IMG/VR virus record: IMGVR_UViG_3300010163_000004
Location: 8,935 to 72,934 of that record
DNA: 64,000 nucleotides
Strand: one strand, 5' to 3'
Source of the DNA: a virus
Lineage: Duplodnaviria; Heunggongvirae; Uroviricota; Caudoviricetes
How positions within the stretch are numbered: the stretch's first letter is position 1; each line of letters opens with the position of its first letter. A program made the position numbers and the translations under genes. The notes under the pieces were generated by a model. The model worked only from the letters and a program-made list of their open reading frames with translations. It had not been told where the DNA came from and made no database searches. This document shows positions 1 to 36,118 of the stretch, one piece after another.

Positions 1-993
1 ACCATTGCATATGGACTTCCTAGGGCAGTATATGCCGACAGAATGAATAGAAGAATGACAGACTTGGCTAAAGAATCAGTAACTCCACTGCTAAAAGATC
101 CGTTCTAGGTACATCGTTATACTAGAAGTGACTTAGATGCAGAAATGTAGGGAGAGAGAAATTACGCAGATCTTAGAAGGTTGGCTAGTAGACCTATTAC
201 TTCTGATGGAAGTCTGTAGACTGCTACACAATTACAAGCGGAAGTTTAGGGACAAGAAGCTAGAACAGCCGGAAAAGAAAAGAGTAATCAGACTTAGCGA
301 CAATATGATGAATTAGCTTGGCAACAAGAAAAAGAAAATGCCGCTAACCGACATGAAACGGCTATGTTTAATAGAGCATAGTAGTGGGGAGCTGACCAAG
401 ATAAGAGTAAATTTGAATAGGCTTACCTATCCAAAAAGTTTAACATTTGGGATACCTTTGGACAATAGTTAGAGTTTGAAGCTAGAAGTAGACAGTAGGA
501 GTCCAAGGCTATAGCTGATCGTTTTGCTTATTCAGATATTCAAAATGCGGTTAACTCAGATCCTAATAGATACGGAGCTGGACTTACGGAAGAAGAATTA
601 GCCTTACATAAAAAGTTATAGGCAGGAATAGCACCCTCATAGTTGATTTCTGAAAATAATAATAATGTTACTTTACTTTCCTCTATTAGATAGAAACTAA
701 GTCAGGCTTAGCAAGCTCAGTTAAGTTAGTATTATAATATTAATCCTTCTAAATGGGCCGGAGTTAGATCTGCTCAAAAACCCTAGGAAATAATTATTAC
801 CAGAGCAGCGAGAAAAGGAGCAAAGTTAGCAAAGAATGACTCCAAAATAGCTATCGCTGGAATAGAGGCCAAAACTGCAGATGCAGAAAGATTTTAGAGA
901 CAAATTAAGGATTGTATCGACAGAAATGAGAAAACTCTAGATAGATTATCCAAAAGTTTATATGGACTTATAAAAGCTTCAATGATAAAATGA
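1..993 (+). CDS. 5'-partial virion/cargo-type protein, TAG read as Gln (330 aa visible)
   Basis: Frame 1 is open from base 1 to TGA 991-993 with about 17 in-frame TAG and no TAA/TGA. C-terminal RAARKGAKL motif. The stop overlaps the next ATG (ATGA). Confidence 0.85.
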
Positions 994-2867
994 TACTGAA
1001 ACTATAGCAAGGGGGGAATGCCCTTCCCCCTCTTGTTTCTTATCAACCAGTGACTGTTACTGGTAGGGCAACTGCTGAACCTACTGCTGAGTCTAATGGA
1101 GAGGTTTCAGATTTGACAGATAAAGACTTGTTAGATATGATGGAAAAATTAAATGGATTACCTAGTGATATAGAATTGTTAACTAATTCCTTATAGAATT
1201 TCTATATTGATTAGTAGTTTAGTCCCTTTCCTAATACTTCTAATATAGCATCTAAATACATGTAGATACTGAGTTAGCTAAAAGTTGCCAATTTTAATAA
1301 AGAATAGTTCGATAAAGCTCTAGAAATAGTAACCAAAAACGGAGGTCTGAATGAATTTGCTATTAATGATAGAGGACAATTATTCTGCATAAATTCTGAA
1401 GGAAACTTCAAACTAATGAGTATAGACGAACTAGAGGGGTCTGATTATCAACCTCTTACAAATTCCGAATTATTACAATAGCGTGCATATTCTCCATCTT
1501 AGGCATTTAGAAACGACATACTTAAAGTAGTGTCTAATGGTATTGGGATGGAAGCCATTAATAAGTAGATACAAGACGTTATATCTAAACTAGGAAAGTC
1601 AGAGTTTGGAACTGAAGGATATACGACTAAATAGGCTAGTTAGGTGTTAGGAGGAATAGAAATACTTAATTCAGCAATTTAGTAGGGAGCTTTAGACAGT
1701 GGCCTAACTAACTTGTCAGTAGATGGCCTATATAAGAGCAAGATAATTACTTCTAGTCAAGCTGCGCAGGCAGAGAATGCTCTGAGTTATATTTATCATA
1801 CTCTTCCAGAAAACGCAAGAACTTTACTAAAATTAAAATCAGGTGGAACCGATGAAGGAGTTAAAGCTCTTTTAACTTAGTTAGTTACTTCTAGTACTTC
1901 TAGCAAATTTGACTTTAATCTAGATTTGCAAAAATCATCTACTAGCTCAAAGGATTCTTCAGGTACTAAGGATACAACCCCAGAAATGAGTCTTGCGGAA
2001 AACATTCAACGCGGAGGAGGTACTCCTGTAGCTATGCCGTTTAAGTACGGAACTATGGATACAATGATTACTGATGCACGGATGTATCCAGTTACTAAGA
2101 AAAATGGGGAATCAATAGGAGGTAACGTTACATTATAGAAATTTACAGAGGATAGTTAGATTACTGGATTATATGACCTTACTTAGGTTACTTTTGGAGA
2201 CCAAATAATTCCAACTTCAGGAATTAAGGATATTCTTGTCGAAGACCCAACTATTTACCATGCTTATTTACCTATTGACCAAGATTAGGCTAGCAAAGGT
2301 ATTATAACACCCGACTTAAAAAGTGTAGCTAGATTAGAAACTGCTAAAGAAAAATTAAAAGAGTTAGGTATAGAGTCAGTAGAGAATGTTAAAACTCCTC
2401 AAGAAATCGAGGCTGTTAATCAAGTATATGCAGAGCTTAAATTACCTCCTGTAAAATTAGAGGATGGCAAATTTACTCAATATTATAGACAGTTTGGTAT
2501 TTTACAAGGTGATGCATTTAGTAATGCTTTCTCTGACCCAGATGCAGTAATTCTTGGAGACTCACCAATGCTGCATAACGTGGAAAAAGAGAATATAGCC
2601 CAAGGCATATTCGATTTAATTAAAGGACCTAACTCTAAGGAAAAGTACGATCATAGAGGTGCATTCGATATGCATATATGGGGAAAACCTAACCATCAGA
2701 GTATATTTAAAGGATTAATATTCTTACCATTGAAGACTACTGATAGGAATTACGGAAAAATGGTTGCAGGTAATGACATTACAGAGAAGGAAGCTATAGA
2801 AAATCAAATGAAATATTAGTAGGAACAGAGATTAAAGAGCACAACAATTGTTAGAGGATAGTTATGA
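990..2867 (+). CDS. Putative virion/cargo protein, 625 aa, TAG=Gln (MILKLQQGG...)
   Basis: ATG 990 overlaps the upstream TGA. The frame is open with TAG=Q to TGA 2865-2867 and includes track fragments 1926-2138 and 2568-2819. Confidence 0.85.
1012..1041 (+). terminator. Intragenic hairpin plus T-rich tract (possible attenuator or weak intrinsic terminator)
   Basis: GGGGGAA-TGCCC-TTCCCCC followed by TCTTGTTTCTT, 4 nt after in-frame TAG 1005-1007. Confidence 0.3.
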
Positions 2868-5800
2868 TTCCAGAATAGAAAGAAAATGATTGGATTGTTG
2901 GAATATTAGGAAATCCACAGTTGTCTACAGCTGATTTAAAGGCAGCAGGATTTTCAGCAGATAATACTTCTCTACTAAATGAGAGTGAGTATTTAAAAAG
3001 TCCCAAAATTACTGACAATCCTATATTTAAGAACGAAAACGGGGAATTTGATAAGACCAAATTTCACGACTTTTATGAACGAGCATAGTTGACATACAAT
3101 ATATTATCTAATGATACCTACTTAGATAAAATGCTAAAAGATTAGACTACCTTTAGTTTTGATGATTGGTTAGTTCCTATAGACTAGAGGCAGAAAGCAA
3201 CAGATATGGTTACATACACAAAAACTCCTAACCCTAATAGAACTAATACTAGCCTCGTAAGATTAGGAGTTACTGATAATCCCAGATGGTCTATAAGTGA
3301 ATTAGCACAGAGGGAAAAAGTAGCTGCCAATCCAGTAGAAGCAGGAGACGACTACTCAAAAATTATCTGGCACGAAGCCCCTAATGATTCCTGGACTACT
3401 GATTTTTTCGATACTAGAGTACTAGCTACTTATGATAATGATGGAGAACACATTGATTTAGTGACTGGGGAAAAAGTATAGCACAAAAAGGGTGACTATA
3501 AATTGAATGAGAATGGAACATACTACTATGAAAATCTGGACGGCAGAGACATTTATGGTAAGCAAGTTCTTAATAAGATGAATACTCTAACTAAGGATGG
3601 TTCTTGGATAAATAATTATGATTTCTTTGACTCTGATGATTTAAACAAAAAAAGTGTTGGAGGAACTATAATGAAGAATCTAGCTTTGGTAGGAAGTATG
3701 TTTATTCCATATGTAGGACCTTGGATAGCAGGAGCTAGTGTTGCTACTTAGCTGGTAGGACTTGCTGGAACTTTAGGTAAAATGCTAACTGGAAGCGATT
3801 CTCCCACATTTTCAGCCATGGAAGGCTGGTCAAAATCAGTTAATAGGCAGACTGCCAAATCTTAGTTTGCACAAGAAAATACTTGGTGTTGGGAAAATTT
3901 TATTTCTTTAATTGGAGATGTAGCAGGCTAGTTAAAGGAACAGAGATTCCTATTTGAGTTTGCTCCAGCCTTATTTAAGAAAAGCTCTGCTGTGACAGCA
4001 GAGGGATTGTCACAAGCTGGTAGGGAGAAGTTTATAGCAGAACAAATAGATAAATACAAAGATATAAATAATCTAAAACTAGCCTAGCTAATAGAGGGAG
4101 GGGCTACTCCATAGTAGCTTAGTGCTTTTAACACTGCAGCTAGCCTAAATAAATTTAGAGCAGAAGCAGACTATGACAAATTCGTGTAGGCTTATTAGAA
4201 AATAGGGTCAGTGCTATCCAAAGGATACATGACTGCGGTTACAGTAGCCGATACTTATGGAGAAGCTAAGTCAGAGGGTAAAGCTACTGACTTTGAAGCT
4301 ACTATGCTAACTCTAGGTTATGCGGCAGCAGAAGCTGCACTATTAAACACTGGAATAGGAGAGTGGATATTGCCTGAGTTAAAAGGAGAAGGATTAAAGA
4401 GAAGAAAAATTATAGAAGCATTTGCGAATGCTCCTAAAGAAATTAAGAACAGTGTCCCTGATAGAGCTAATAAGAAATAGTTAGCTAAGTATTGGTTTAA
4501 AAAAGGAAAAGAAATAGCTACTGACGTAATGTCTCTTGGAAAGGGTACCCTTGGGTCAGCAGTATCTGGTGGACTAGGAGAAGCTATAGAAGAAACTACC
4601 GAGGAACTGTTGGCTGACTTCTCTAAATCTTGCTATAATGCTGTGTAGTACTTGCAAGGGGACGAAGGTCGCATGAGCGCTTGGGATAATATGTTTGACC
4701 GATATGCTATGTCTTTCTTAGGAGGAGCCGTAGGTGGAGGTCTAACTGCACTAGGTACAGACTTTAAACTGAATAGATAGGACATTACTCCTGAAGCTGC
4801 CCGTTAGCAACTTGTATATGACTTAAGAAATAACAAGAAATAGGATTATATAAAGACTTTGGAAAAAATGGAGATAGCTAATCCGTATCTCTCCTTTGAA
4901 AGCGATGGAAAATCCTTTAAACCGTCTTCCAAAAGCATCAGAAGTATGGATTAGGATGTCAAGAGAGCATTTGTTTAGCAATTAGACATTTATGATAATA
5001 TTATAAAAGCGGAGGGATTAAAAGTATCTGACCAGTCTCTACTAGATACTTAGATATTTAAAGATGTAGCTCTGCAGGGACTTTAGAATTCGACAGTTTC
5101 TTCTTTATTTTTACAGGACTTTAATAGTATAGTATCTAACATATTAAAAACTTAGGAATCTATCCAAAACATTAATAATAAATACAAAGATTCTGATAAA
5201 AAACTAACAGACGAAGATAATAAAGAAATTGTTACATTAACTAAGGAATTAAACGATCTTAGGCTAAAAAAAGATAAGTATCTAGATGGTTCTTTAGCTA
5301 TGGACTACATTTCTAAGGCAATGTTTGACTTGACTCCAGGATTTAGTGAGTACTATAGTAATTCCTTGTTCAAGGATTATGTTAAGCAGTAGTACAAGAA
5401 AAATATAAATGATTTATCTAGTGAGGATTTGAAAGAGGCTAGGGCTAAGTTTGATAATTGGAAGCAGACAGACTATAAGAATAGAATATCTGATATTACT
5501 CCTATATACTTAGACTGGGCACGAAATTCTGGATTATTTATACAAGAGTATGCTAAAAATTATGACTCTATTAGGAGAAACAGGTCCATTTACGATTTAA
5601 TTAAGAGTACTCTGAAGAGATAGGATCAATTAAATGCAGGTGCTTACACAGAGGAAAATAAAATAGACTAGGCTGCTGACTTAGATGCTTTTATAGATGC
5701 AGTATAGTCAGAATATTAGACTAGTAAAGCTGGAGCTACTCTAATTTTTTCTGGAAATAATGAGACCTTGAAACAACAGCTATTAGAATTATCTTAGAAT

Positions 5801-8800
5801 AAAAAAGGAAACAGTTAGAAGATTTCGGATCTAATTAACCGAGAATTATCATTTAATCTAGATAAATACTTCCAATAGTTTAAGACCTCCTCTATTAACC
5901 CAGAAATAAAGCACGAGATACTAAATTCATTATAGGCTCTAAAGGAGTGGTCAGCGAAGCAACAACTGCCCGTCCGTGATATAAATATATCGAATATCTT
6001 AGAGGAGTTTGATAACTATGGATATAACGGAATAAACTCTAATACTAAAATCTCTGAATTAAAAGCAAAGGTTCAGGCTATGGACTTATTAGGTATACTA
6101 GGAAACGCCGATACACTTATTGCATATGCGGAGAACTAGGGACTATAGAATCCAACTCTACAAGATATAGAAAATATCTAGAAATAGTTTGGAGTAATAG
6201 ATAGCAATATAGACTTATATACAAGGGAAATAAACAATTCTACTTATACAGATGCTATTTAGTTTGTATAGAATCATATCTAGGCTAATTCCCAAAAGGG
6301 AGATTTAAACATATCTGAGCTTATAGAGAAAATTAACTTTATCCTAGATGAAAATAGAGGTGATATAAGTAGTGTTAATTTTGATGAGGTAATAGGTCAG
6401 ATAGACGATGCAGTGACTTCTATTAATTTTGCCAAAGGGTTAGTTTTAGGAGCACAAACATCTACTGATGGGGCAGATATTGGAAATCTTTTAGGATATA
6501 ACAAAACTCTTAATGAGATAGCTAAAAAGAACAGAGTCGCTGATTGGGAAGTACTTCCAGAAATAACTATGGAGGATGCAGCTATCATTAGTTAGGATTT
6601 AGATTTGATAAAAAATAAGCTAATTTAGGCGAAAGCTATATATGCTATAAATTAGGGGAAAAAGCTAAACTTAGTTAACAATACAGCAATTAATAAGAAC
6701 TTTATCGAGTATAACAGATTATCAGACTTTATAGTTAATATAGGCGATGATTGGAAAGAAAGAGACAGGCTATAGGATGCTATTAACAATGCATTAACTC
6801 TGAAAGAGTTTGCTCCAACCAGAAATCAAAAGGGAATAAGTGCCTAGTAGAGAGATTCAATTGAATTAGAAAGAGTAGCTATATCTGATGCTGTTCACGA
6901 CTTTTTCCAAGCTAATGAAGATCTAATTAAGCAAGGAAAACTAAAAGACTTATTTAGAAAAGGGTTTGACTTATATAGTTTGACTAATTAGATAATTAGT
7001 TAGAATACAGAAGCATTAGAGGATTAGAATTTTGTATATTGGTTGGCTAGTAGAGCTGCTTTAAAGCAATCAGATTTTCTTAAAAAGTTTAAAACTGTAA
7101 TAGATGGAGAAGTAGCTCCCCTTCCTACCCAAGAAGAATCTATATTTTAGGGACTAGCAGAGGTCCTAAATGGCGATATGACTACTTAGTTTATGGAAGC
7201 GTTTAAATAGGCTGCTATAGAAAACTTCTAGGAAAGTAGTGATACTATTAAGGAGGATATTCTGAGAAATAAACTTGGGGTAAATACTGCTGAAGAGATA
7301 AGAAAATTTATTGATGATAACTAGATAGTAAATGAGGACATTATTCCCAAATTCGAGAATATATATCTAATAGAGGGCATCCCAGGAGCAGGTAAAAGTT
7401 AGGCAGTTAATTATTATATAACTAAAATGCTTCCGAAAGAACTATTGGAAAATAGCTGGTTTGTTCATAATAGTTAGAAAGCTGCTGATGAATAGGTCAA
7501 AAAACTTGGACTTAAGAAAGCATTCTCGAAAAATCCCTTTATGACTACAATTTATTCTAACTATAATACTAGTAGGGATACTAATAAATACGGATATAGA
7601 TTATATGATAAGGAAGATTGGATTAAGGACTCTACTGGTAAGATTGTATATAAATATCAATCAGATGACATTGCTCCAGAAAATGTTCCATCTTTGATTA
7701 TTATTGATGAAATATCCCACTACGATGAAGCTGATTTATCTCTGATAAACGACTTTGCTAAAAAATATGGAATAACTGTTTTAACTGCTGGAGATTTTGA
7801 CCAAAGTTCAAGCAAGGCTATGGTAGAGAGGTATGAAAATACTGAGTTACAACTAAGTCCAAAAAGGTCTTTCTTCAAACACGCGCCAAAGCTGGGAGTT
7901 AGTATGAGAACCTCTAATTCTCAATTAGACAAAACTTTAGCATCCTTTAGAACTACAGATGAAAACGATGTTATACAGACATACTACTATGAGTAGCCTG
8001 GAAATTTTACAGGAGCTAAGGTAGTTCTTGATAAAGATGAGGCTAAGGCTACTATAGATAATATTATGTCCTAGGTATCTGATAAGGATAAGGTAGGACT
8101 TATTTATTATGATATGGAGTCTCCTTTGTATCAGTATATGAATGAAAAGTACAATGGAAGATTTGAAGCATTTAGAGGTACAGCAGCATAGGGGTTAGAA
8201 GGTAGATTTTATATAGCTGACTTTACTGGAAGTGATGAGCTTAGCAGAAAGAAAGATTTATATACAGCTATAAGTAGGGCAGAGTAGGGAGCCTTAGTTT
8301 ATGGTTCTGAACTTACTAAAATCAAATCTAACAGAGAAAACGTTGTTACTATGTCTTCATTTTCGAAAGCTGGTATTGCAAGATTTTCTGAAAATAGAAA
8401 AAAATTCCTGGAACAAAATTATCCTGAAAGTATTAATCTAGTTAAAATTGATAGATAGGGCATTAAGACTGTAATAACAACTCCTCCTCCTACTAAAGTA
8501 CCTCCGCTAATAGCTACTTAGGATGAGCTAACTCTTCCTACTAATTATGGAGAAAAAACTGTAGAAGTGTTAAACGAAAAGTAGTCAGAATAGCCTACAG
8601 CAGAACTAGGAGAAGATTTTGTATATCTACTACATTCCCATAATACATTTGAGTTAGGAATGAAGGAGAAGGATGGAAAATTAGTATTTGAAGATGAAAT
8701 TTCTAGATATAGATACAGAATTGATAGTGCTATAGGACTAGCTAAAATATTTGAGTTAGACTGGAAAAATCCGGTAAAGGATGCGAAGTTCTATAAAAAT

Positions 8801-11206
8801 ATTATAAAGGAAATTAGAGGTTATTTATTTACTAGTACTAGTAAGCCAGACCTAATATTAGCACTAAGCTCTGTTTTTAATCCAGATGAGAGTAATCCTG
8901 ACTTGGAAGTAACTAATGTTGAATTTGGGTTAATGTCGGCCCCAAATATTAGTTCTAGAAACTCTGACTAGAAATGGGGCTACGGATAGGATGCAAAACA
9001 GTTTGGCATTTTTGACAAAAGCAACGATGAGAGAACTATAGGCAATGCTAACCCATCTGAAGAATCACAACACATAAATAGGAAAGCTATTAATGCTATT
9101 ATTACACTAGCAAACGGTAAACGAGTTGCTATTCCATTGTTTACTTTAGGCAATTTAGAAACTTATACTAGAAATCCTACTTCAGAAATAGGAATCAAGC
9201 TAAAAGCACTATTTGAATAGAATCCAGATCCATATAACTTTCATAAAGCTATTCTATAGGATGAAGAGCTTTCCAAAGTACCAGAAGTAGCTAATTTAGC
9301 TACCCTCTTTTTATTTACAAATGGTGGGTATTTTAAGATAAATGACGAATCATGGATTCCTTCCAAAGGATTAAAAAATTGGGGTATTTAGGTAAATCAG
9401 AATGCTATATCTGGAACTAAGTTTGAATTTAATGGAATTACTTCTACTATATCTGAAGCTTAGGACTATTCTGGATTTGTATTCTCTAAAGGAATATATA
9501 CTTCCATGTAGGATTTAAGTGATGCTAATGGAAATCCTATTAAATTTGCAAATAAGGGCCATGCATTTATACTAGTCACCTAGAATCCGCTTTTAAGTAG
9601 TGATTAGTTAATGCGGGAGCAGTATGAACGATAGTTAATAAATCCTAATGAGAATAAAGAGGTTACTCTTGTTTACGTGGTTCCTCCTAAAGTACCTGTT
9701 GAGGATTACCTAATAAACTTAAGAAACCTAATAAAGGAAACTGATTCAGATAAGAGAAAAACCATTAAAAAACTTGGAAGTCGTTTAACTTCTTATTAGA
9801 TTTGGGATAAGCTTCTCCCGGAGCTAAAAAGTAACAACCCATTATTTAATAACTTAGAAGATGAACTAAAAACAAAAATAATAGAAACAGTTGAAAGGCT
9901 TTAGTAGCTAGAAAAATCCTCTCCAGAGCTATTAGTTAATGAGGTATCTACAGAAGAAACCTGGAAAGGGACAGGTAAACCTACATAGAGTATTCAGCAG
10001 CATCTGAATTATGCATTGTTGAAATGCTACATTGATGCTCATATTAGTAATGTCCTACTAGATAAAGTAAGCGAACTTGCTAATATTTTGCGAGAAAGAG
10101 GAATGGGAGAGTTTTATTACTCTACTAAGTTTAAGGAAAAGATACCTCCAAAAGATTAGGTAATGGTTTAGTTAGAATCTGACAACTATACTATTAATGG
10201 TCTTCCATTTACTATAAATGCTAAACTTGATTCTAGCTTATTTAGCTAGAATAAGGATTTCAATACTATAATAGAATCTTTTGTAAATAAAATAATTCCA
10301 GCGAACGATAAAATTCCTAGAGACTATTCAAGTGATACCTTTGGGTTTATAAATCCCAATAGTTCTCAATCGAAGGGGAATACGTTTAGTATAGAACCTA
10401 ATTGGTATAATATAAATCAAATAACTATTTCTGGAGAAGGCATCTCAGTAGATGGTAGAGTTAAAAATTTTACTCCTGAGTATGTTGATAAATTAAAATC
10501 CGCATTACTAATTAATGGTAAGATACCCACCTCAAAAGAAATCTTTGAATTATATCGGCCTTATCATTTTGACTAGATAAATCGAACAAATGCTGATTTA
10601 ATGTATAATAATATTATAGCTTATTTATCTGGAGATGCTGTACTCCCTGACGGCTATAACATTTATAACATGATATAGGGAGATATAAATCGTACAATGA
10701 ATGAGTTTAACGCCAGAGATAGTAAGTCTAAGTATTTCTTCAATACTGCTAGTGATAGAGTATTTAAGGTAGAATTTTCTGAGGATTAGATTGATAAGGC
10801 AGGGCTAGAGAAATTTATATTAGATACATCCGTCAGAACCAATGAGTACAATCTAGGAAATGGCTTAACTCTAAGAATTAATAGGGAGAACCAGACAGCT
10901 GAATTAATAAAAGAAGCGTCATAGGGACAAGACTCTTCTATGTATGACGAAATGTTCTTAGAGGATGGTTCTCCGATATATAATCTGTTTAGTAACATCG
11001 GTTATATGTCAGAATTTTTAGACTACTAGGGAGCATATGGTTGGAATACAGTTTCAGAAATGTAGGGTTCAGAGGTAGTCGACGAACTAACTAACATATT
11101 CAAAGCTATGCCAGATAATGATACAAATAAAGAAGAATTAAAATAGTTATTGAATTATTTAGCTCAAGATAATGAATATTGTACAAATATATTTAGAAAC
11201 ATATGA
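2864..11206 (+). CDS. Giant virion (ejection/cargo) protein with SF1 helicase-like NTPase domain, 2780 aa, TAG=Gln
   Basis: ATGA overlaps at both ends and the frame was hand-checked free of TAA/TGA. Motifs: Walker A GIPGAGKS (7376-7399), Walker B IIIDE, GDFDQ, motif V AA[TAG]GLE (TAG 8189-8191), motif VI LYTAISRA. Gly-rich hydrophobic segments near 3680-3780 and 4700-4760. Confidence 0.9.
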
Positions 11207-14200: not shown

Positions 14201-17200
14201 AGGGAAATTTTCATGATATTACTAGCGAGGCAGATTTTATTTAGTTGGGAATTAATAAGTTTGATCCCCACTCTTTAGTTAACACTACAGTATTAAATCC
14301 TCTACTAGCTAAATATAACGCACTTAATTATTTATATAGCCAGGAATTTCTGTTATCTACTGTAGGAAGTCATGTTAATCATCCTAACAAGAAAGCTAAT
14401 CAAATAGACTTCAATAACTTTGAAGCTATTATGAACGACGAAGCCAATAGATATTAGGCATAGCATAAACGTAACGTATCCATGACTGCAGCTATGCATG
14501 AATATTTACTAGGGCAGCTCACTGGTGTCCCTACCAATGCTAGAATAGCAGTTACATAGGATATTAACGATTATGTTTGTAATATTCAAGGTGATAATAC
14601 GGCAGTAAAACCTTTTGATGGTTCTACCTTTGTGAATCCATTTATGGTAGTATTGGAGAATAACTCTTTAAATGGGGAGCGTTCTGGAATACACAAAAAG
14701 CCTTTTATACATTTTTATGATGAAACTACTGGAACTGGTGGAATTATCAAAACAGCAGGCTTCGGATTAACTAATAGTTGGCTTAAGAACTCTCCATTTA
14801 ATGAAAGGATGATGAAGAAAATGACAGATATTGTTTGGTCTGATTAGAATGGAGAACCTATTTACATAGACATAACAAGGAGATATTAGGGCTAGTAGGG
14901 AGAACCTGATATTGACTATGGAAATATTTATTATACTTCACCTATCAAGAATCCAAATACTGGAAAATGGGAACATTAGTATAATTGTATAACTAAAATA
15001 GAATACTTAGGCAATGGTTCATATAATTTATACGAAACAATTGCTGCAAAGAACGGAAAACTGTTAGGAGTTCCTTAGCCAAGAAGAGTAGATGGCATAG
15101 ATACTAATTACAAAGTATGGAAGTATATTTTCCAAGGAATAAATAGCGTAAGTCTGAATGAAAATGGATAGCTTGCTGGATACAAAAACTTCGGAGAATA
15201 GTCTATATATAATACTGTTAAAGCTATTAATAGTTGCGGATTTTTGTTAAAAGGGAATAAGCCCCTAGATTAGAATAATTTTTATTAGCCCATGAAGCAC
15301 TCTGATATTCACTATCTGGTGACTGAAGGAGCTATCAAATAGGGAGCTGCCAACTATAATACTAAAAGTATGTACTATGATAGTATTCCATTTAATAGTT
15401 ATTCTATATAGTTAGCATAGGCTGGAATCCAGTTGGACAAAGAGCATCATGCTGATGATTCTGAAATATCAATGATGACATAGGTAGTAAGTGCCTGTGC
15501 GGCATTAGGATATACTTGGGATGAATCAAATAAAATGTATCAAGCTCTGTATTCTCTAACGAAATAGGGGATAGAACCCCTAGTAGATTCCCTTAGAGAA
15601 GAATTAAACTCTTCTGAAAGTAACTCCAAATTTTCAAAGACTTTAGCTAATCTTTTAGTTAAATAGCTTGCCAATGGTAATAAAGCGAAGGATGGAATTA
15701 TTATGGATGTGGTAGCAAACCTTATAGATAAGTATAAAAGAGGAGAAGAAATAACTGATGATGATATTAGGAAAAACCCTATCCCAGTAAGTGATCCGGT
15801 ATTGTATAATAAAATAGGATCTATGCTCTCTTCAATACTTACTAAATCTGCTATTAAATTAAAGTTTAAAGGAATTTTGTCTGTGCTAGTACCGTCTCAT
15901 GAGACTATAAAACTATACGGAGGAAAGCTAAAATCAGAATTTGTAAATTTTGAGGAAGAAATAAAGGAGTTACAGGCTTAGTAGCCAGTTATTGGAATTT
16001 AGGATGTTTAGATGAATAGAACCTATTTTGTAGTTGATGCTGAAGGAAATACTATAGACAAGGTTCATGTACAAGGCCCTGTTACTGGTAAGGATGTATA
16101 TGGAGATCCTTCTTTAAAATATATTGGATACTATGATTTAAAGAAACTGTATCCTAATTATTCATTTGTAGAAGATATAACTAATGGTCGGAATTTAGGC
16201 TCATACTTTTTTACTTTTATTGGAGACGATGGAATAAAGTATAATATGTATGACTTAGCAGATTCTTATAATATATATACATAGCAGGAAGGGGCCTCTA
16301 GAAAAGCTCTTCAAGAGACTCTAAAAAATGTCAAAGAGGGGGAGGTTGTAAAAGTATTCACTGGAAATGAGTATAAAGATGTAGTCATTAACAATTTACA
16401 AGTATAGCCTTATGAAGTTATAATGCCTAAAACAATGGCTTCACAGTTAGGACTTACTCAAGAAGATTCTGTAGATTCTCTACTAAGAGACTAGAACATA
16501 TTCAAAAAGAAATTGATTAAAAATCTAGCTATTGGAATTACAGATGAGAGAGCCTATACTGTGGCTTTAAAGAGATTAAACGGACAGCACTTTTATATAT
16601 TAAGTAAATAGTAGTTTAACAAACTACATCCGGAATTAAAGAAAATTTAGACTTACCCACCAGAAGTAGATGCTATTTCTGGAAAGATATATTAGACTGA
16701 TATTAATGGAGAAAGACAATATGAACTATCTTCATTAGAAGATGATACATATATCATTGATGGACAGTACGTTATTGTAACCGATAATGTGGGCTTTTAT
16801 TTAGACACTTTTAACTATAACATCCCTTAGGTATCTAGTAAAGTTGATTCAGTATAGTTAGGTAGGATACTTCGTCACAAATCTAAAAATAAATCTTTTA
16901 GAAGTTGGATTAACACTGTTGGTAAGGATATTACTATAGCTAGGCATAGAAATTAGTAGTTGAGTAATATAGAGATAAATTAGGAAGGAAACTTTGAAAG
17001 TAATGGACAATTAGTAGAAGCTTAGACTTTAGATATTATAAACTACTTAGGAAATGAATTATATACTTCTTTCAAAAAGTCTTTAGATATAATAGCTGCC
17101 CGTATTCCAGCTCAATCAATGTAGTCATTTATGCCTATGAAAGTTGTAGGATATGAAGATTTTGACATAAATACAGCATATGTATCTACGCATCAAATAT

Positions 17201-20196
17201 GGTTGCAGGGTTCTGACTATGACATTGATACAGTATCATTGTTGACTTTTGAGTTATTAAGAAATGGAAAATTTGCAGGATGGTCGCCCTATTTTGACCT
17301 ATCTTCGGAAGAGTCTTTAAGAATATCAACTAGATTAAACTATCCTACTGGTGAAAAGATCAAAAGAATAGGTATTAGGGAGGCAGTTAAAAATGAGGAA
17401 GGGGTAGGAGACGGAGATAAATTTGCATCTTATATTGTTAACTTATTTTCTTCATATGATTTTAAGATGGTTAATAATATGCCAACTCTATTTGAAAGAA
17501 AAGACACCTTATAGAATAGGGTGGAATTAATTAATCGACTATCTAAAGAGGGATTATTAAAGTTTTCAGACTTGTCAGATTTAGGTAAATAGAAGGCTGC
17601 AGATATATTCAATTAGGAATTTAGTTAGAAATTTACTTCAGAGTAGCTAGAGTTTTTATTTGAAGAGCTTGCTGTTATGGTCAATGATCATAATTTATAT
17701 TCTAACAATTAGGAAGAGTATACTAAGAACTATGTGGTGTAGCAAATGATTGATATTATTACTAATCCAGTAAATTAGATGTAGGCTACCATGTCTGTAG
17801 ACTAGACTACCGATAGGCCAAAAAAGATGGCAGAGAAATCGGAAGCTGGTAAAGCTTTGAAGTATGCAACTCCAGGAAATGTTGCTAATATAATGTAGGC
17901 AATAGAAGATAACTATACTGGTAAGGAGGTTATTGGTATTTCTGCAGTTGGATTAAAATCCTTCTTTGCTATTACGTAGTATACTAATACTCTCTTAAGA
18001 CAAGGGAACCTTAAACCTCTATTCAATAAATCTATTATATTTAATGGAAAGGAATATTACACTATAGCTAATGCTAATCCTGATCTAGCTCCGTAGACTT
18101 TAGAGAATTTAGAGTTATTGTAGAGAATAGCAAATGCAGATGATGCAGCCCTTGAGATATCTGCATTGTTATCATTAGCCACAGATAATGCCAAAGAATT
18201 ATGTTTAGCTAAATTAAATGCTAACTCTAAGATGGCAGACATGTATATTTATGGCCTATCTATGGGTATCCCCTATGAAGAATTAGGTAAAGTGCTTATG
18301 TCTCCAGTGGGAGATGCTGTAGCATCTATGTTAAAGGGAAGTATTATTAGTGATAAGCTTTAGTTAAACTCTATTGATGATGTTATCAAATTCATGAGTA
18401 ATCCTATTAGCTCAATACTTGGCTCTTTCAGTACCGAATATCTAGTAGATACCGCCGGAAAAAAGACTGGAGTAAATATTTCTACAGCTATTAGAAAAAG
18501 TACTAAGGGAGTAGAAAAATGGTTGAATGACCTGATGAAGTCCTTATATGGAGAATTAGATGATTTTGGCAATTATATCTAGAAGAAAACTATTAATGAG
18601 GTTATTAATGAGTTAAATAATTTCAGAAATAGAGCTATAACTAATTATAGTAATACCGTAAGAACTGACCTTGTCCAAAACAAACAGTTGGCAAATAAAG
18701 TTATAGACTAGATTATTGACGGTCTTATAGTTTATGACAAGGTATGGAAGAACGGTCCTCAATTATTTGAAAACCTTGTTACCTTACATAAGGGGGCAGC
18801 GGAGTTTAACAAAATAGGTTAGTTACTAGGAGTTAATTAGGGAGTAAAAAATAAGGAAGAAGATTACCTAAATTATGTAAAGAATATAGAAAATATTGTT
18901 CCTAGTAAATTAGACTTTATTCAGTTCATGACTAACCCTGAATACAGATAGGCTAAAATTGATGAATATGAAAAGATTAAAGTTAGCTTTAATCCATTAG
19001 CTATTATAACCACAGTTCCACATTACTGGGGATATTCTTTAGCAGCATTTGAAAAGCATGAAGCATATATGAAGAGTTCTATTAAGTATAGGACTATTCA
19101 TGATTATATAAACGTTGGGTATTAGTATGGTACTGATACTAAGGGTACTATCCAAGGAATTTCCAATCTATGTAATAATAGATTAGTTAATAATTACTTA
19201 AGTTCTTTAGAGTTTGTATTGCCAGCTGGATCTACTTTAATATACTTGCAAGATAAAGATACTCTAATAAAAACTTAGACTTCTAAGGATTTGCCTATTA
19301 GATTAGGAACTATTGGAGGTAATGCTACCTTTAAAAATTGGGTAGAAAAATAGGTAATACCAGACTTAAAAGCTGGATATAATTCTAGCAATAGAGATCG
19401 TATTAATATAGCTCTTAAAAATAATGAATTTATAAACTCATTAAGGCCAAATATATATTCTAAAAATGCTAGTAGAAATAATTCAATATCATATACTACT
19501 ACTATTAATATGTCTCCAATTTCTGAAGAAGATAGATTAACGCTAGGAAGATTCAGATAGAGCTTTGATTCTATTAATTCTAGCTATAACGGAATACCTA
19601 TCAAAGATATTCTATACTGGTACAATCTTATTTCTTATGGAGGAAAGTCTGGACAAAGTACCCTAACTAGTATTTTTGATAATTATGTAAATTCTGCTGA
19701 ACCTTCTAAGTTTAGAGAAGAGACCTCTAAGCTGGATACTAGTGGAGATAGTTTCTAGCTATCTAATGAAGAATTAGCTACCTGGCTAACTCCTATAACT
19801 AGTAGTAGGAGAGGAAGATTTAGAAGAAGAAGAAATAAGGAGGAATTAAGAACTGACTTGATTTAGATTCTGCGAGATGAAGACGGAATATTTACTGGAG
19901 AATAGATATATAATAATTAGGATAATATTGACTATAACGTTATATTAAGTATTCCAACTCGAGGAGACCTAATAGAATTACCATTTAATGAGGGATCTAT
20001 AACGGTTAATACTGTTACTAGAACCATTATGGATATAAAAACAGATAAGTTATAGGGAGAGCAGCTAACGAAGGTAAAGAAGTTCTTGGCATCTCACTCT
20101 AATTTATATATAGACTACGATCCTAATATTAGAAACTATAAAATAAATACAGATATATTAAACAAATATATAGACAATCAAATAAACTGTAAATGA
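11203..20196 (+). CDS. crAss-like single-chain virion RNA polymerase (beta- and beta-prime-like regions), 2997 aa, TAG=Gln
   Basis: Open with TAG=Q from ATG 11203 to TGA 20194-20196. Motifs: PSVNSDKS, QAQHKRNVS, DGSTFVNP, GAIKQG, GIQLDKEH, ARIPAQSMQ, catalytic GSDYDID (DYDID 17215-17229), GKEVIGISA, LATDNAKE. Confidence 0.92.
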
Positions 20197-21128
20197 GTAT
20201 ATGTATAAACAAAAATTCTGTAGAGTTCAGGGCGCTAGAGTAGCGTTCTGAACTTCCAGAATCTTATTTAGCGGCCGTATGTGCAGACTTTCAAGAAAGA
20301 CTCAATAGATTTCCCCACCTTGATGAAATTAAGGGAGCAGACTCTTCAAATTATTTAATAAAGGAATTAAATATCAAGCGTGGAATTGCGAAAGAATAGT
20401 AGATTTACAGGCTTACTGGGAAAAATAATTTACAATCTTCGTAGGCATGGGTAAATGATAATTTTAGAGATCTAGAAGTAGAATTTTCTCCATTTTTTGA
20501 TGATATTAAGGTGTATATTACTCATAGACCTATTACTCAAGAAATCTCTACTCCTGTAAATCATTCTAAAGTAAATGATACTCTAGTTGTAGAGGAAATC
20601 ATAAGTAAATTGCAAGATGTATACGGACTACCAGTAGAATCTGTTATAACGGAGGATTTGAATGAATATAGAGAATCTCCGATTTTTTCGGAAGGTGGAA
20701 TAACTTATGTAAATGCAGACGCTATTACCTTAGACACTCCAGTAATAGAACTGATTCCTCTATTAATTACTTCACTCCATGGCACAGAACTTTATGATAA
20801 GCTAATTAAAAATAATGAGAAAGAATTTTCTAAAGAATTAAGAAATAGAATAATAGATAAAAGCGAAAAATTATAGTTTCTTCCAACCAATGTATAGTAT
20901 GAGTTAATGTATAATATGAAGCGCACATTAGATTCTATTCTAATGGGAGAATCTAGTATTAGAGATATTAATAATGATATATTATTTAATAGTACTTTAA
21001 GGTCACTTGCCAGAATGGTTAACTCTAAAATTGATGTCTCTAATTCTAATATACCAAGTCTGGATTTGGAAGAAAAACACAAATAGTTAGTAGAAGAAGG
21101 AAAGGTAACTGAATATTGTCATGTCTGA
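20193..21128 (+). CDS. Virion-associated protein with degenerate zincin-like region, 311 aa, TAG=Gln
   Basis: ATGA overlap upstream and TGA 21126-21128. GITYVNADAITLDTPVIELIPLL resembles the xIYINxxxxxxDTPxHExxH pattern with both His replaced. Confidence 0.8.
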
Positions 21129-24100
21129 ATGTATATATAAATTTAAAGACCACGAATTTAGTAGTAAGAAGGAATATGAGAACTTTCTACTACAAAAAGG
21201 AGACGAACTGTACGAAATCTATGGAGATTTAGTATTTAATGCTTTAGATAGCGTAATAACTTAGGAAGCTCTAAAGAAAGTTAAAGCAGAAGCTCAAAAG
21301 CATGTTAAGGCTTATGCTGAGGCTAAAAAAGTGTACTAGGATGGAGAAGATAATCTAGAATTTAAGCGCCCTTATATCGGCGTAACAGAATTTCTTGCAG
21401 ACCTTACTAATTCTAAAGACTAGCTTTTAATGCCTTCTTTTAGAGAATTTGAATATTGGAGAAGACGTATTAAGGACTGGAAAGATCCTACTAAAGGATT
21501 TAATAATGACGAAATAGAACTGTTTGGGAAGAATGTAACTATTACAGATAATATTAGTGAAGACTAGCTAAAGGAGTATTTAGATAATTTTGATAATAAT
21601 TCAGAAACTACTAGTTAGACTTTAGGATTAATCAAACAAATGAAGGATAAGTGGAAGGCGTAGGGTGAATTAGGTACAGAGATCCATAGTATCTTAGAAA
21701 TGCTTTTCAGAACTACAAAGGCTGGATTACTTATCACTTAGAATAATAAAGCTATTAAAAGCTACATAAACTTATAGTATAAAGATAAAAAATTAAAATA
21801 GGATACTATTAATAGTATAATTAAATATGGAAAAAAGTTACATGAAGATTTAATTAATACATATGGTCATAATCTAACTTTTTTTCCTGAGTTTAAAGTA
21901 GTTACTAAGCTAGGATATGAGATCGAAGGAAAGGGGGATACCATCTTAGGAAAGATAGACTTATTAGTTGTTGACGGGGATGGATATGCTCATATTATTG
22001 ATTATAAAACATCTCCCAAAGATTCCTTTGATTCTGCTAAATAGAGAGCTTTTTGGTATCAGATGGGATTATATCATAGAATGATTGAGAATGCTGGAAT
22101 TAGAGTTAATAGTCCATCGCCTAAAGTTATTGTTGCTCCCATAAAAATGCATAATTTTAGGCAGGAGGGAGACACTTGGGTATTTGACACTATTTCAGCT
22201 AGGTTAGGAGAATCTACTTTGGAAGACATAACTACCAGAGCAACATTAAATGAGGTTGCTGCTAATATTGATGAATTCATTCCTCCTACCCCAGTTATTG
22301 ATTTAACTCCTAAGGAAATTGTAGCTAATGTTTAGTAGATAATGGAGTCTTCGTTTCCTAGTATAAATATGAGCAAGACTTGGGGAGACGAAGAAATAAA
22401 ATCTATGATGGAAGGGAATATTGAGTAGGACCCAGAATCTAAGAAATGGATATTTAAAACTGAAAACTCTAAGATTCCATATACTGCTAACACTTAGGAA
22501 GAACTTTTTGAAAAAGTTAAAAAGTTCTATTAGGAAACTCTCCCAAAAAAACGCAGAGACATGGTAGCCTCTGTGGAAATGGCCTTGAAGAAAGGCATAA
22601 AAGAAAATACTAGTCTAGTTCCTTTACCAAAATAGGGAAATATTAATGTTAAACAAGGAGCTTCCGCAGAATGGTTCTAGAATCTAATGGGTAAGTACTG
22701 TAGGAACTATTATGAAATTATAGAAAATGAAGCAATAAAGGCTTATGGGGTTATTCTACTAAGAAACAAGCTCAACGGGTAGATTGATATATTGAAAATT
22801 ACTACCGACAATCTAGATTATTCTCATAAGTTTAATAAATCTAGTAGAAGATAGTTATTAACTGGGGCATTTGAAGTAGATAGTGTATAGGCTAGGAAAC
22901 CTGGTTCATTGGCTATGAAAGCTACTAATGGAAACATACACTTGATGGAGACAATGGCAATCCTAAACTGTTTGCCTGAGATAACCTCTAAAGAAGGAAT
23001 TATTGGAAATATACTTGTAGCCAATCCTCATTCTCTACAAGGTACAACAGCATCAAATGAAGAATTAGTCTACAATTTTGGAGAGTTAGTATCTCACATT
23101 GATGGGTTTTAGAATAATATCAAGAATATTAAGTTTGCAAATAAAGTAGAATTAGCTAAAAATAAGCTTAGAGAGGCATTAGAGCTTGGTGCTATCACAC
23201 ACTGGGAAGAAGACAAGTATAAGTTTGTAGGAAAGTATAAAGATTTATATACATAGTTGGATGAAGCAGTCTCTACTAATGACAGAAGAGATATTCTTAG
23301 AAAATTGGAGGCAATTAGAAAAAAGTTAGAAGAGCCTAATGGAGGTTTAAGAACTGAATAGATAACATCGTTAGATACTTATAGTGAGGAAGGAAATGAA
23401 TAGAGAACTCTATATAACCATATAATGTTAGCTATTGCTGAAATATAGGGAGTGCAATTTAGACAATAGACTAAAGATAATGAAAAGTATCTTGAGAGTA
23501 TGAATATATTCAACAATGGTGTTAAATCTCTAATGCTAGATAATCCAGGAAATCTAGATAATGCTACTCTAAATAAATTAACTTCTCTTATTACTGAAGC
23601 TTATTAGAATACCCGTGAGGATATGATGAGAGAAACCCCAATTATTAGAGAGCTAGTAGAAGAACTAAAGAAGAGTAAAGGGTTTGGAAAACTATCAGAA
23701 ATGACTATTGGCAATTAGGCAAACTTGTACAGAAATATGATAGAATATAAAGACGGCGATATTTTATTTAAGAACCCTTGGAGTAACAAATTCTCAGGCA
23801 CTGAATAGGAAAAGAAATTTCTTAAATATGCCCTCACTAAGATAAATTAGGACCGATTTGGAACCGATGAACTAGATGAAATGATAACTACAGAAGATGT
23901 TAGATTCTTTAGAGTTCCTTTAGCTGTAGGAAGTTTATCCTCATAGGCTTCTTAGTTAGGAAGTATTACCGAAGCATTTAAAAAGAGATTAGTTAGTAGA
24001 TTAAGCCCAAAAAGATGGTGGGAAGAAACGCAGAAATAGTTTCTAGGAGTATTCTCAGATGTCTAGAATCCTTCTTCTGAAGGAGAACTATTTCAGATGA

Positions 24101-25830
24101 ATAATATGTTTGATGCTGGGAAGAATACAGAGTAGAGATTAGAGAAGATTGCAGAGAAGGGATATGATTATTTTGAAAACAACCTAGAAACTTTATTACT
24201 AAAGCATATATTTGCTTATTCTACTAAGAAAAACGTTGACTTAATTATGCCAATGGCTAAAGCATCAATGATTCACGTAATTACTTAGGGATAGTTAACT
24301 AATAAAAAGTTTACTAATACTGCCAATTATATTACAGATTATATAAAGTCTCATATTAAAAATGAATCTTTAATTCCTGAAAATCAGTAGAACCTTAATG
24401 CTATTATTAGCAGAATTAAAAATGCTGCATCATTCTTGGTACTAGGATTTTCTCCTATTTAGTATGGTTATTAGATGATATAGGCTCTCTGGACTGATAT
24501 AAGATTAATGTATTAGGGAAGAGGAGATGAAGATACTCCTTTCACTTTTGAAAATTTTGCATTTGCTTTTAAAGAAGTTTATAGAGAACTATTTACTCTT
24601 GGAGGAAAGCCTACTAAATGTAGTTTACTAAATGATATGTTTGCCATTAATGATAGAGATATGAATACCTATGCAAAATAGATTAAATCAGATAGGTACG
24701 GAATATTCAATATGTCTAATATCGCCTTTTATTGTACTAGTAGACCAGATTATTATAGTAGAATGTCTATATTTGTCACTTAGTTAAAATAGGATGGTAG
24801 TTACGATGCCTATGAAAAAGTTGGAAACAAACTAGTATATGATTGGAAAAAGGATAAACGCTTTGAAGCATATGCTAATGGAAGAACTGACGATCCTAAA
24901 TATAATGAGCAAAAAGGGTTATATTACGCTATAGCTGAGCAGTTAGAGATAGAGCATGCTAAAAATGCTGATGGTAGTTTATTTTAGGTTGGGCAACCCT
25001 TACCTAAATCTCATACAAACCAGTAGATCGAGAATTTCAAGTCATTAGCTGACGATATTTATGGTTACTATGCTCATGAAAAGAAGGCAATGGTTCATTC
25101 CTATACCCTTGGAGCTTTGTGGATGCAAATGAGGACTTTCTGGTCTGGTAAGAAAAACTAGTATTTAGGAGGATAGGGTATTAAATTAAAAGGACACTAT
25201 GCTCAATAGAAAGACTCTAATGGCAATTTGTTATATCTTACTGAAGAAAATGGTAGAATGGTGCCAACTACAGAAAATACTGGAGTCCCAGTAGTAAAGT
25301 GGGAGGGAGAATGGTAGGAAGGAATTATGCTAACCTTATCATAGTTAATATCTGGAACCTTCCAAGGAGATGGGTTAAAGCATACTTTCGAAGATATGTG
25401 GTATAATGAGGATGAGAAGCTTAGAAATCTCTATAGAGCCAATTTACGACAAATCTAGTATGATATACTAATGTTCTTTATTGTTGGCACTCTTGTTACT
25501 GGAGCTTTAGCTGGCTGGGATGATGAAAATATGAAGAAAGCTAAGAATTCTAGAAATATAGACGATGCAGCTATAGCAGCTGCTGCTCATATGGCGTGCA
25601 AGATGGTAAGTTCGTCTTTTTTAGACCTTAACTTTATTGAATCTATTGGAGGACCACTAGTTTCTTGGCAACCAATGTCATTTAGTTATTTTTCTAGAAG
25701 AGCTAAAGATATATATAATACAGCATTTGGGGATACTTCTTTTACTGATGCTCTTATTAAAATGTCTTCATTAATAAATAATACTAAGATATTTTGGAAT
25801 ATTTTACTTCCTGAAAAGGAGTAGGAATAA
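21121..25830 (+). CDS. Giant virion protein with PD-(D/E)xK (RecB/Cas4-like) nuclease domain, 1569 aa, TAG=Gln
   Basis: ATG 21121 overlaps the upstream stop by 8 nt and the frame is open to TAA 25828-25830. Motifs GTEIHSILE, FPEF, GKIDLLVVD, IIDYKTS, YQMGLY (about 21660-22075). Hydrophobic segment near the C-terminus. Confidence 0.88.
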
Positions 25831-25886
25831 AAAAAAAATAGGGAGAAACATAGACTTTATTGTCTACGCTTCTCCCTTTATTATTT
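25829..25886. terminator. Bidirectional intrinsic terminator between the convergent blocks
   Basis: A-tract, then GGGAGAA...TAGAC/GTCTA...TTCTCCC stem (25841-25876), then TTTATTATTT. It lies between TAA 25830 (+) and TAA 25885 (-). Confidence 0.8.
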
Positions 25887-35194: not shown

Positions 35195-36118
35195 TTAAAA
35201 TTTTCCATCATTAGGTTGTAAGCAAATTAAACCTTCATCTCGCCACATGCTAACACATTTAGCATTATCCTCAAGGACAAAAGGTATATAGAATTTACCT
35301 TTAATATTGTCCTCATATAGCTTCTTCTTGCATATAGGTCCCGCTACAAAATCATTAGCTGGCCGCATTAGGAGCATATCAGGATATAAATTGTTGTTTT
35401 CTAACCATTCCTCAGTAGCCTTACGAATTTCTAGAGTATCCTCTCTACCAGTTAGTATTATTAACTCGGCTGGATAACTATTACAGAAGTTTCTAATAAG
35501 TTCTATTATAGGAATTACTGGCTCATCAGTAAGCATACCTTCAGCTGCTCCTTTTCCGTAAAACGGACGACCATTAGTATTCAAACATACAGTAGCATCC
35601 ATATCTACTATAATAGCTGCTGGTAAATTGGTATCTTGAACTAACATTTTGGCCTTAGCTGCCATAATCTCTTCATGAATTATAAAATCCTTATAGCGAT
35701 TCCAGGTTTGTTTAATTACTTTCTCACCAATAGGATTAGGTCTCATGGCGTCACGTCTAATACATTCATCCACTGGGGTCCAGAAGTCCTTATACTCAAT
35801 ATTAACATGAACGCCTGTATCCTTCTCTATATTAGTACACAGAGTTCTAATCCACTGGTCTTCTTTGGGATTAAGATTCATATTATCAACTACTACATCA
35901 TATCCATTAATAAGGGCAAACGTTATCATGTTTGCCTTAACTTCAGTAACAAGTTTTTCTCTACTAGGAATCCAATAGTCTCCCAACATGTTACGAATGT
36001 CGTCATTATTGAATCTTACTCTATGTTCTGAATCTTCATGACACCACTGTTTAGCCCAAGTTGACTTCCCCGAACCAGGAATCCCACGACAAATAATTAA
36101 TTTTCTTATTTCTTTCAT
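35195..36118 (-). CDS. Polynucleotide 5'-kinase/3'-phosphatase (T4 PNK-like)
   Basis: LIICRGIPGSGKSTWAK P-loop, NNDDIR, VVDNMN, HAD domain IVDMDAT, TGR, LEDN. Start moved to ATG 36118 (ATGA overlap). Confidence 0.9.
   Translation of the reverse strand: MKEIRKLIICRGIPGSGKSTWAKQWCHEDSEHRVRFNNDDIRNMLGDYWIPSREKLVTEVKANMITFALINGYDVVVDNMNLNPKEDQWIRTLCTNIEKDTGVHVNIEYKDFWTPVDECIRRDAMRPNPIGEKVIKQTWNRYKDFIIHEEIMAAKAKMLVQDTNLPAAIIVDMDATVCLNTNGRPFYGKGAAEGMLTDEPVIPIIELIRNFCNSYPAELIILTGREDTLEIRKATEEWLENNNLYPDMLLMRPANDFVAGPICKKKLYEDNIKGKFYIPFVLEDNAKCVSMWRDEGLICLQPNDGKF

Follow-up and report, generated by a model that had tools for sequence, protein, structure and literature searches.

Very probable reading of UAG as glutamine in the late genes of a crAss-like phage whose early genes keep the standard code

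The stretch of DNA considered here (the window) comprises 64,000 nucleotides of the virus record IMGVR_UViG_3300010163_000004, positions 8,935 to 72,934, whose whole contig measures 185,001 bp and is 99% complete according to CheckV. Its first 25,830 bases carry, on the plus strand, six genes that become visible when the codon TAG is read as glutamine (Gln) instead of stop. This reassignment had been proposed in an original prediction made on the window, for a virion-protein and RNA polymerase operon of 25.8 kb. The features of the window are listed below; coordinates are those of the window, unless they are said to be genome positions, which refer to the whole contig.

1-993, plus strand: gene 1, the C-terminal 330 codons of a late gene of 1453 amino acids; 17 TAG, ends in TGA
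990-2867, plus strand: gene 2, late gene of 625 amino acids; 22 TAG, ATGA overlap at either end
2864-11206, plus strand: gene 3, 2780 amino acids; 88 TAG, superfamily 1 (SF1)-type P-loop ATPase/helicase domain at residues 1499-1650
11179-20196, plus strand: gene 4, RNA polymerase of ~3000 amino acids (3005); 100 TAG
20193-21128, plus strand: gene 5, late gene of 311 amino acids, syntenic with genes of 327-361 amino acids in relatives; 7 TAG
21121-25830, plus strand: gene 6, 1569 amino acids; 54 TAG, ends in TAA, last gene of the recoded block
25840-25877, no strand: hairpin (16-bp stem) with an A run on one side and a T run on the other, located where the two blocks converge
25885-64000, minus strand: standard-code block, replication and nucleotide metabolism

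Under the standard code (translation table 11) the plus strand of positions 1-25,830 contains only one open reading frame (ORF) of at least 150 amino acids. If TAG is translated as Gln, the same interval is occupied by six contiguous plus-strand ORFs that end in TGA or TAA, as the original prediction had anticipated, with a total of 288 in-frame TAG and not a single in-frame TAA or TGA in 8620 codons. The longest open run of the plus strand is 176 codons under table 11, stays at 176 when either TGA or TAA is taken as a sense codon, and reaches 3006 when TAG is; long frames are thus opened by TAG alone, which makes the recoding specific to this codon. The precise overlaps of starts and stops that had been described are also present, as ATGA at 990-993, 2864-2867 and 20193-20196 and as ATGTCTGA at the junction of genes 5 and 6 (21121-21128). 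There is a further ATGA at 11203-11206, and the ATG at 11203 is more likely to be the start of gene 4 than the TTG at 11179 because it gives another overlap of this kind.

TAG is the majority Gln codon of the late block. The window contains 288 TAG against 109 CAA and 53 CAG (64% of the Gln codons), and the share of TAG in the late genes of the whole genome is 54%. The early observation that TAG is as common as CAA plus CAG in the first 330 codons was borne out (17 TAG, 12 CAA and 4 CAG), and the motif positions 8189, 14455, 14461, 15340 and 15481, at which a Gln had been expected, are TAG codons in every case. The base that follows TAG shows the same distribution as the base that follows sense codons in general, and no special 3' nucleotide context favouring read-through was found when it was looked for.

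Coding density was compared over the whole genome. ORFs of at least 100 amino acids cover 46% of it under table 11 and 87% when TAG is sense; the recoded block alone goes from 0-15% to ~100%. The proposed extent of 25.8 kb was too small: the six genes of the window are the tail of a recoded plus-strand block of ~101 kb, around four times larger, that runs from genome ~118.9 kb to the contig end and then from genome base 1 to 34.8 kb, with 781 in-frame TAG across 58 ORFs. This block encodes a crAss major capsid protein (Crass_capsid, 1.6e-09), a muzzle protein (crAss_MUZ, 4.9e-27) and the large terminase subunit TerL (phrog_6681, 3.8e-62), together with a putative portal protein whose match to P22_portal (1.9e-05) is weak and below the Pfam cut-off (23.9 against 26.1 bits). 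The named or annotated tblastn matches of TerL are Crassvirales, and several of the best ones are unannotated 'Bacteriophage sp.' records.

The rest of the genome is mainly a divergent minus-strand block of 83 kb (genome 34.8-118 kb), which carries 21 tRNAs and the genes for a family A DNA polymerase, NrdD, DNA ligase, an RNA-ligase-like protein, PNKP, ThyX, a Toprim primase and a sigma-70 factor. In the ORFs of this block TAG occurs 0 times in frame, whereas the alternative frames have 642 and 411. Within the window, the minus-strand genes called with table 11 are free of in-frame TAG, and the few TAG found in ORFs called with code 15 belong to upstream extensions. TAA or TGA closes nearly all the ORFs of the block; TAG does so in only five out of 121, and in four of these five a backup TAA or TGA follows within 0-5 codons (for example genome 72459-73013, 85638-86487 and 116939-117328, minus strand). 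Such backup stops would limit the damage once TAG is read through, and the same pattern has been described for other Zeta phages (PMC12386605).

Close relatives are available as IMG/VR loci that are 94.4% identical over 21.5 kb, three of which were compared. When the read-through frames are aligned with the 94% relative, the differences at codon positions 1, 2 and 3 are 237, 84 and 886, and synonymous codon changes outnumber non-synonymous ones by 911 to 211. This third-position bias and the excess of synonymous changes indicate purifying selection on frames that go straight through the TAGs. It could be argued that the TAGs are real stops, either in a decayed or defective stretch or between short genes, and that low GC content has created spurious long frames, given that table 11 yields many short ORFs and that the region is AT-rich (31-36% GC). 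However, 288 TAG would then coexist with zero in-frame TAA or TGA, the reading of TAA or TGA as sense opens nothing, the third-position bias and the 4:1 synonymous excess continue across the TAGs, relatives that use the standard code have unbroken genes of matching length, and the read-through product of gene 4 is predicted to fold like the RNA polymerase of phage phi14:2. The probability of this explanation is vanishingly small; genuine stops are refuted by the replacement of TAG by Gln codons (see below), by the intact genes of the relatives, by the open-run control and by the selection on the frames.

The close relatives also inform on the amino acid. Twenty-eight TAGs of the window are changed in them, to CAG (21-22), CAA (4-5), AAG (1) or TCG (1), so that 26 of the 28 replacements are CAG or CAA. 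In the reverse direction, where the relative has TAG and the window another codon, the count is 19 of 22, and CAG or CAA account for 45 of the 50 replacements pooled from both directions. Of the remaining codons one transition away from TAG, TAA never takes its place, and TGG does so a single time, in one of the three loci.

Seven more distant relatives (L017-L023) were compared together with their DNA. Many database homologues have themselves been called under code 15 (e.g. P0007) and their Q was not counted as independent, so the residue comparison used only codons read from DNA. Four of the seven carry in-frame TAG, 36 to 106 in the polymerase gene, whereas the translation of L021, L022 and L023 with table 11 is clean and free of TAG, at 37-38% amino acid identity to the window genes. 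The latter three show a gene series of 612-618 (the homologue of gene 2), 2668-2689, 3092-3135, 360-361 and 1566-1583 amino acids, to be compared with 625, 2780, 3005, 311 and 1569 for genes 2 to 6 of the window. Uninterrupted genes in the same series are an independent confirmation of the boundaries that the genes have when TAG is read as sense, and the matching lengths mean that no frameshift, intron or intein is needed in this region. The TAG load of the orthologous polymerase genes of L017-L023 is graded (0 in three of them, then 11, 22, 29 and 33-34 per 1000 codons), and this gradation could serve to reconstruct how recoding accumulates.

The residue most often found opposite a window TAG in L021-L023 is Gln, with 17.2% of the aligned cells, a 5-fold enrichment over its 3.5% share of those proteins; opposite the CAA and CAG codons of the window the figure is 26.1%. 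No other residue shows a clear excess: Ser (9.5%), Lys (8.3%) and Glu (7.5%) come next, each within ~1.5 points of its overall frequency. Where the three relatives agree with each other, 31 of 87 columns are Gln, and in the recoded relatives TAG and CAA/CAG interchange freely at the same columns. Of the 20 empirical replacement profiles, one per amino acid, that of Gln accounted best for the residues opposite TAG, with a lead of 121 log-likelihood units over Lys and 135 over Glu. The alignment of TAG with Gln that had been predicted is thus found both in the 94% relatives and, as the top residue, in the standard-code ones. With regard to the motifs, five of the six TAG positions cited in the original prediction are invariant Gln (CAA or CAG) in L021-L023, namely position 8189 in the AAQGLE motif of gene 3, which is CAA in all three, and polymerase residues 1095, 1388, 1435 and 1982; the sixth, the first Q of QAQHKR (14455, residue 1093), is variable, with I, V, K or N in relatives.

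TAG might nevertheless be a sense codon for a residue other than Gln, such as Lys, Glu, Tyr, Trp, Leu, Ser or pyrrolysine, as 83% of the TAG columns in the distant relatives hold non-Gln residues and ARAGORN gives the phage tRNA with this anticodon the label 'tRNA-Pyl'. That program labels any CUA anticodon in this way, and the spread of residues opposite TAG resembles the spread opposite canonical Gln codons. The close-relative replacements, the near absence of the other transition neighbours and the lead of more than 120 log-likelihood units of the Gln profile over every other residue all stand against this option, as does the nearest paralogue of the tRNA, which is a tRNA-Gln; no pyl genes were noticed, though no search was aimed at them. 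Overall, a residue other than Gln is very improbable.

As to the translation machinery, the genome encodes 22 tRNAs, 21 of them on the minus strand and none inside the window. The tRNA with anticodon CUA, one of the two elements for which the original prediction had recommended a search, is located at genome 118647-118719, outside the window, and is the only tRNA on the strand of the late genes; the other element, a release-factor gene, is absent (domains PF00472 and PF03462). There is also no Gln/Glu tRNA synthetase (PF00749) and no known antagonist of release factor 1 (RF1) in the genome. The tRNA(CUA) scores 66 bits against the Rfam tRNA model. Its closest paralogue is the phage tRNA-Gln(UUG), with 75% identity, the other tRNAs reaching 64% at most; both share the D-stem, a near-identical D-loop (with one extra C in the suppressor), the U1-A72 pair and A73, and there is a compensatory swap in the T-stem. 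The 18 differences over 73 positions mark tRNA(CUA) as an old paralogue and not a one-step mutant of the phage tRNA-Gln. Forty loci of related contigs share its 17-nt anticodon arm and 33 of them carry the 73-nt tRNA(CUA) there; all 73 nucleotides are identical in every copy extracted from crAss-like contigs (11 listed). The contigs that share it measure 95-270 kb, and it is antiparallel to the other tRNAs wherever those are visible. A scan for sigma-70 promoters around tRNA(CUA) gave 42 sites, against 42.2 expected in shuffled sequence.

A second tRNA of 71 nt is found on the opposite strand at genome c[114999-115069], ~42 kb beyond the window end and 2.4-3.6 kb from tRNA(CUA), with counterparts in relatives (L025:1214-1284, L026:11020-11090, L046:2412-2482 and others). 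Its anticodon in this genome is UAA, which ARAGORN assigns to Leu, yet it is without a long variable arm. Six contigs, the 94%-identical relative among them, have UUA instead, which makes an ochre suppressor, six others have CUA, which makes a second amber suppressor, and in two the loop is disrupted; the stems show compensatory changes across relatives. No in-frame TAA was seen in the genes of the 94%-identical relative with the UUA tRNA.

Taken together, UAG is very probably a Gln sense codon in the late block, decoded by the phage tRNA(CUA), with a split between recoded late genes and standard-code early genes whose timing is deduced from gene content. The following steps can be envisaged. 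The tRNA(CUA) would be charged by the glutaminyl-tRNA synthetase of the host. The host would start in the standard code and the largely TAG-free early block, whose translation needs no change in the host, would be translated first, following the model of Borges et al. Full-length late proteins would appear only after the suppressor tRNA accumulates, and their synthesis would thereby be tied to the late phase. Among the proteins delayed in this way would be terminase, portal and muzzle protein as well as the virion RNA polymerase, which has 100 TAG, and the giant proteins encoded next to it. Homology with phi14:2 gp66 and crAss001 gp47/49/50 suggests that the polymerase made in this late phase enters the virion and carries out early transcription in the next cell, a use that fits its late synthesis.

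A host that chiefly enables read-through, either because it lacks RF1, because it has its own amber suppressor or because TAG is sense in it, would leave only an accessory role to the phage tRNA. In favour of such a host are the missing phage release factor and synthetase, the difficulty that read-through of 100 TAGs per gene would meet against an active RF1, and the recoded phages without a detectable suppressor tRNA that were noted by Yutin et al. (PMC7886860). Against it, the long early ORFs are without in-frame TAG, although a few small ones on the minus strand close to the tRNA array do have it; five early ORFs end in TAG, four of them with a backup stop, as expected if the cell begins in the standard code; tRNA(CUA) is identical in every copy extracted from related contigs; and standard-code Bacteroidetes are the predicted hosts of recoded crAss-like phages (bioRxiv 10.1101/2021.08.26.457843). 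The chances of this explanation are slim.

Several points weigh against decoding by the phage tRNA(CUA) as described above. The strand rule is not absolute, owing to the few small TAG-bearing minus-strand ORFs already mentioned. TAG sites are somewhat less conserved than CAA/CAG sites (17% versus 26% Gln in the distant relatives), and the putative Gln assignment for this phage is drawn from comparison only. The main difficulty is quantitative, as an ORF with 100 TAG needs ~97.7% read-through per codon for a full-length yield of 10% (0.1^(1/100)) and ~99.3% for a yield of 50%. Classical amber suppressors reach far less read-through against RF1. It is therefore unlikely that a suppressor tRNA that merely competes with RF1 attains such values, and the mechanism as stated is probably incomplete, with a component missing, since the demand for read-through is high and no release factor, synthetase or RF1 antagonist was found.

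A tentative extension, possible although doubtful, is that the phage largely abolishes termination by RF1 through an unrecognised factor of the standard-code early block, and that TAG density acts as graded translational control. The first part would follow if competition by a single tRNA could not, as this reading holds, account for genes that contain 88-100 in-frame UAG; the second would draw on the position of tRNA(CUA), alone on the late strand, on the TAG-free first genes after it, on the avoidance of TAG in the abundant capsid genes and on the low-copy cargo and polymerase genes, which are the densest, with TAG at 62-72% of their Gln codons.

Some observations on the distribution of TAG can be added here. 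The first plus-strand genes past tRNA(CUA) (genome 118962-124156), which include a PD-(D/E)XK nuclease and a GroES-like protein, are free of TAG, and the TAG-rich genes start at genome 124354. Two TAG-bearing ORFs lie on the minus strand at genome 119739-122053, one with a match to phrog_15610 ('protease') and the other a protein of unknown function of 552 amino acids with 15 TAG. The crAss major capsid gene (in genome 164322-168927) has one TAG among 10 Gln codons; when it is taken together with two neighbours, two of 27 Gln codons are TAG, versus 54% overall (binomial p = 4e-7). Among the densest genes are those for the cargo proteins and the polymerase in the window, with TAG at 51-72% of their Gln codons. 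The use of TAG may track the level of expression.

The RNA polymerase encoded by gene 4 was proposed in the original prediction from motifs, and its best structural match agrees with that proposal. The DxDxD motif is D-Y-D-I-D at residues 2013-2017 and does not vary among 23 homologues. Residues 1040-2160 were modelled with AlphaFold; the model has a mean predicted local distance difference test (pLDDT) of 70, with values <50 at the motif loops, and a predicted template modelling score (pTM) of 0.60. In a Foldseek search of 350,542 chains the top match of the model was 6vr4_A, the virion-packaged RNA polymerase of phi14:2 (gp66), with an E value of 0.029. The alignment with 6VR4 by VIA-align gave Z 13.2 and a root-mean-square deviation of 6.9 A over 382 residues (model 67-1019, chain 902-1555), while the next unrelated entry had Z 4.3; weak matches were also obtained to the barrel regions of the bacterial RNA polymerase beta and beta' subunits. 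The link between the 3005-amino-acid protein and 6VR4 comes from this fold comparison only, because searches of PDB chains with the whole protein or with a core profile of 23 sequences returned nothing meaningful. The polymerase itself has no match in Pfam and PHROGs, and tblastn against 50,697 deposited phage records found two distant unannotated records only. By analogy, the gene 4 polymerase is inferred to be packaged in the virion and to start early transcription in the next cell.

The other genes of the operon are less eloquent. Gene 1 is cut by the window edge, and the full gene begins 3368 bases upstream. The SF1-type ATPase proposed for gene 3 is supported by matches to Pfam AAA_19 and AAA_30, and gene 6 has an N-terminal PD-(D/E)XK nuclease domain (residues 176-348). 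Genes 1, 2 and 5 have no family match in Pfam and PHROGs, and the label 'virion protein' for the five non-polymerase genes comes from gene order alone. The hairpin at 25840-25877 is likely a bidirectional terminator at the boundary between recoded and standard-code genes.

Some further genes deserve mention. A sigma-70 family factor of 281 amino acids with regions 2, 3 and 4 (window 40058-40903, minus strand) belongs to the standard-code block and, next to the virion polymerase, could turn the host RNA polymerase towards middle or late promoters. PNKP, the RNA-ligase-like protein and the ATP-dependent DNA ligase are grouped on the minus strand (window 35195-36163, 43158-44519 and 46276-47475) and resemble a T4-type set for the repair of tRNA or nucleic acids, in a phage that has 22 tRNAs of its own. 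Inside the structural block there is a reverse transcriptase gene (genome 138420-139694, plus strand; RVT_1, 9.6e-20) with four in-frame TAG, which probably corresponds to the diversity-generating retroelement that Zeta crAss-like phages are reported to have.

The practical consequences for annotation are considerable. Table 11 loses about half of the coding capacity (46% versus 87%) and breaks up the terminase, the portal, the muzzle protein and the virion RNA polymerase, so this genome needs code 15 for ~101 kb and code 11 for the remainder. Besides, a heavily recoded phage with matched standard-code relatives forms a comparative set in which the origin of recoding and the overcoming of RF1 can be addressed. 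A search of sequencing runs gave small shares only (<=0.19), in wastewater and animal-gut runs.

A parallel to the proposed decoding is supE (glnV) of E. coli, a tRNA-Gln with anticodon CUA whose suppression is partial, in competition with RF1. The phage tRNA(CUA) is also of the Gln type and reads UAG, but the phage needs near-complete reassignment. Among phages, recoding as such is already published and the novelty of the present case is low; the genome is a well-supported further case. In agreement with the statement of the original prediction that code 15 is known in Crassvirales, the reassignment of TAG or TGA in crAss-like late genes, along with suppressor tRNAs and a transcription block interrupted by in-frame stops, was reported by Yutin et al. 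in 2021 (PMC7886860) and generalised by Borges et al. in 2021 (bioRxiv 10.1101/2021.08.26.457843), and TAG-to-Gln, which both of these papers had predicted for such genes, was confirmed by TAG-spanning peptides in crAss-like phages by Peters et al. in 2022 (PMC9523058). The published code 15 crAss-like phages share with this genome an in-frame TAG largely confined to the structural, lysis and transcription block, a standard-code replication block, their own tRNA(CUA), the alignment of TAG with Gln and the fragmentation under table 11. On the other hand, only four gene families prefer TAG in the crAss-like genomes of Borges et al., whereas TAG is the majority here in nearly all late genes, and the phages of Peters et al. 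are confirmed by peptides, whereas this one is known from sequence alone.

With respect to the polymerase, phi14:2 gp66 (6VR4) resembles the gene 4 protein in the fold of the modelled core, with its double-psi beta-barrel, and in the DxDxD motif, although the latter is ~40% longer and has no detectable sequence similarity to it. The giant proteins of the window (1569-3005 amino acids), whose genes are placed after the muzzle protein gene, parallel gp47, gp49 and gp50 of crAss001, which belong to its cargo proteins gp45-gp50 (PMC10172136). The RNA polymerase genes of the Zeta phages studied by Yutin et al. contain stops and frameshifts that hint at further mechanisms, whereas here TAG read as Gln alone gives clean genes; in this lineage, that reading suffices for the giant genes of the RNA polymerase block, and frameshifts or other mechanisms are unneeded.

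The phage itself, a crAss-like one of 185 kb, probably belongs to the Zeta group. Its genome falls within the range of that group, 145-192 kb (PMC7886860), and the many tRNAs, the reverse transcriptase and the suppressor tRNAs also point there; the nearest deposited phages show 43-44% identity in TerL and 27-29% in the RNA polymerase. Recoding in Zeta phages (proposed Echekviridae), such as Lera, was discussed in 2025 (PMC12386605), and these phages have in common with the present one a very large genome, a large tRNA set that includes suppressors, a family A DNA polymerase, a reverse transcriptase in the structural block and two divergent gene blocks. Lera differs in that TGA is reassigned to Trp and its tRNA(CUA) is apparently unused, whereas the phage described here is heavily recoded at TAG.

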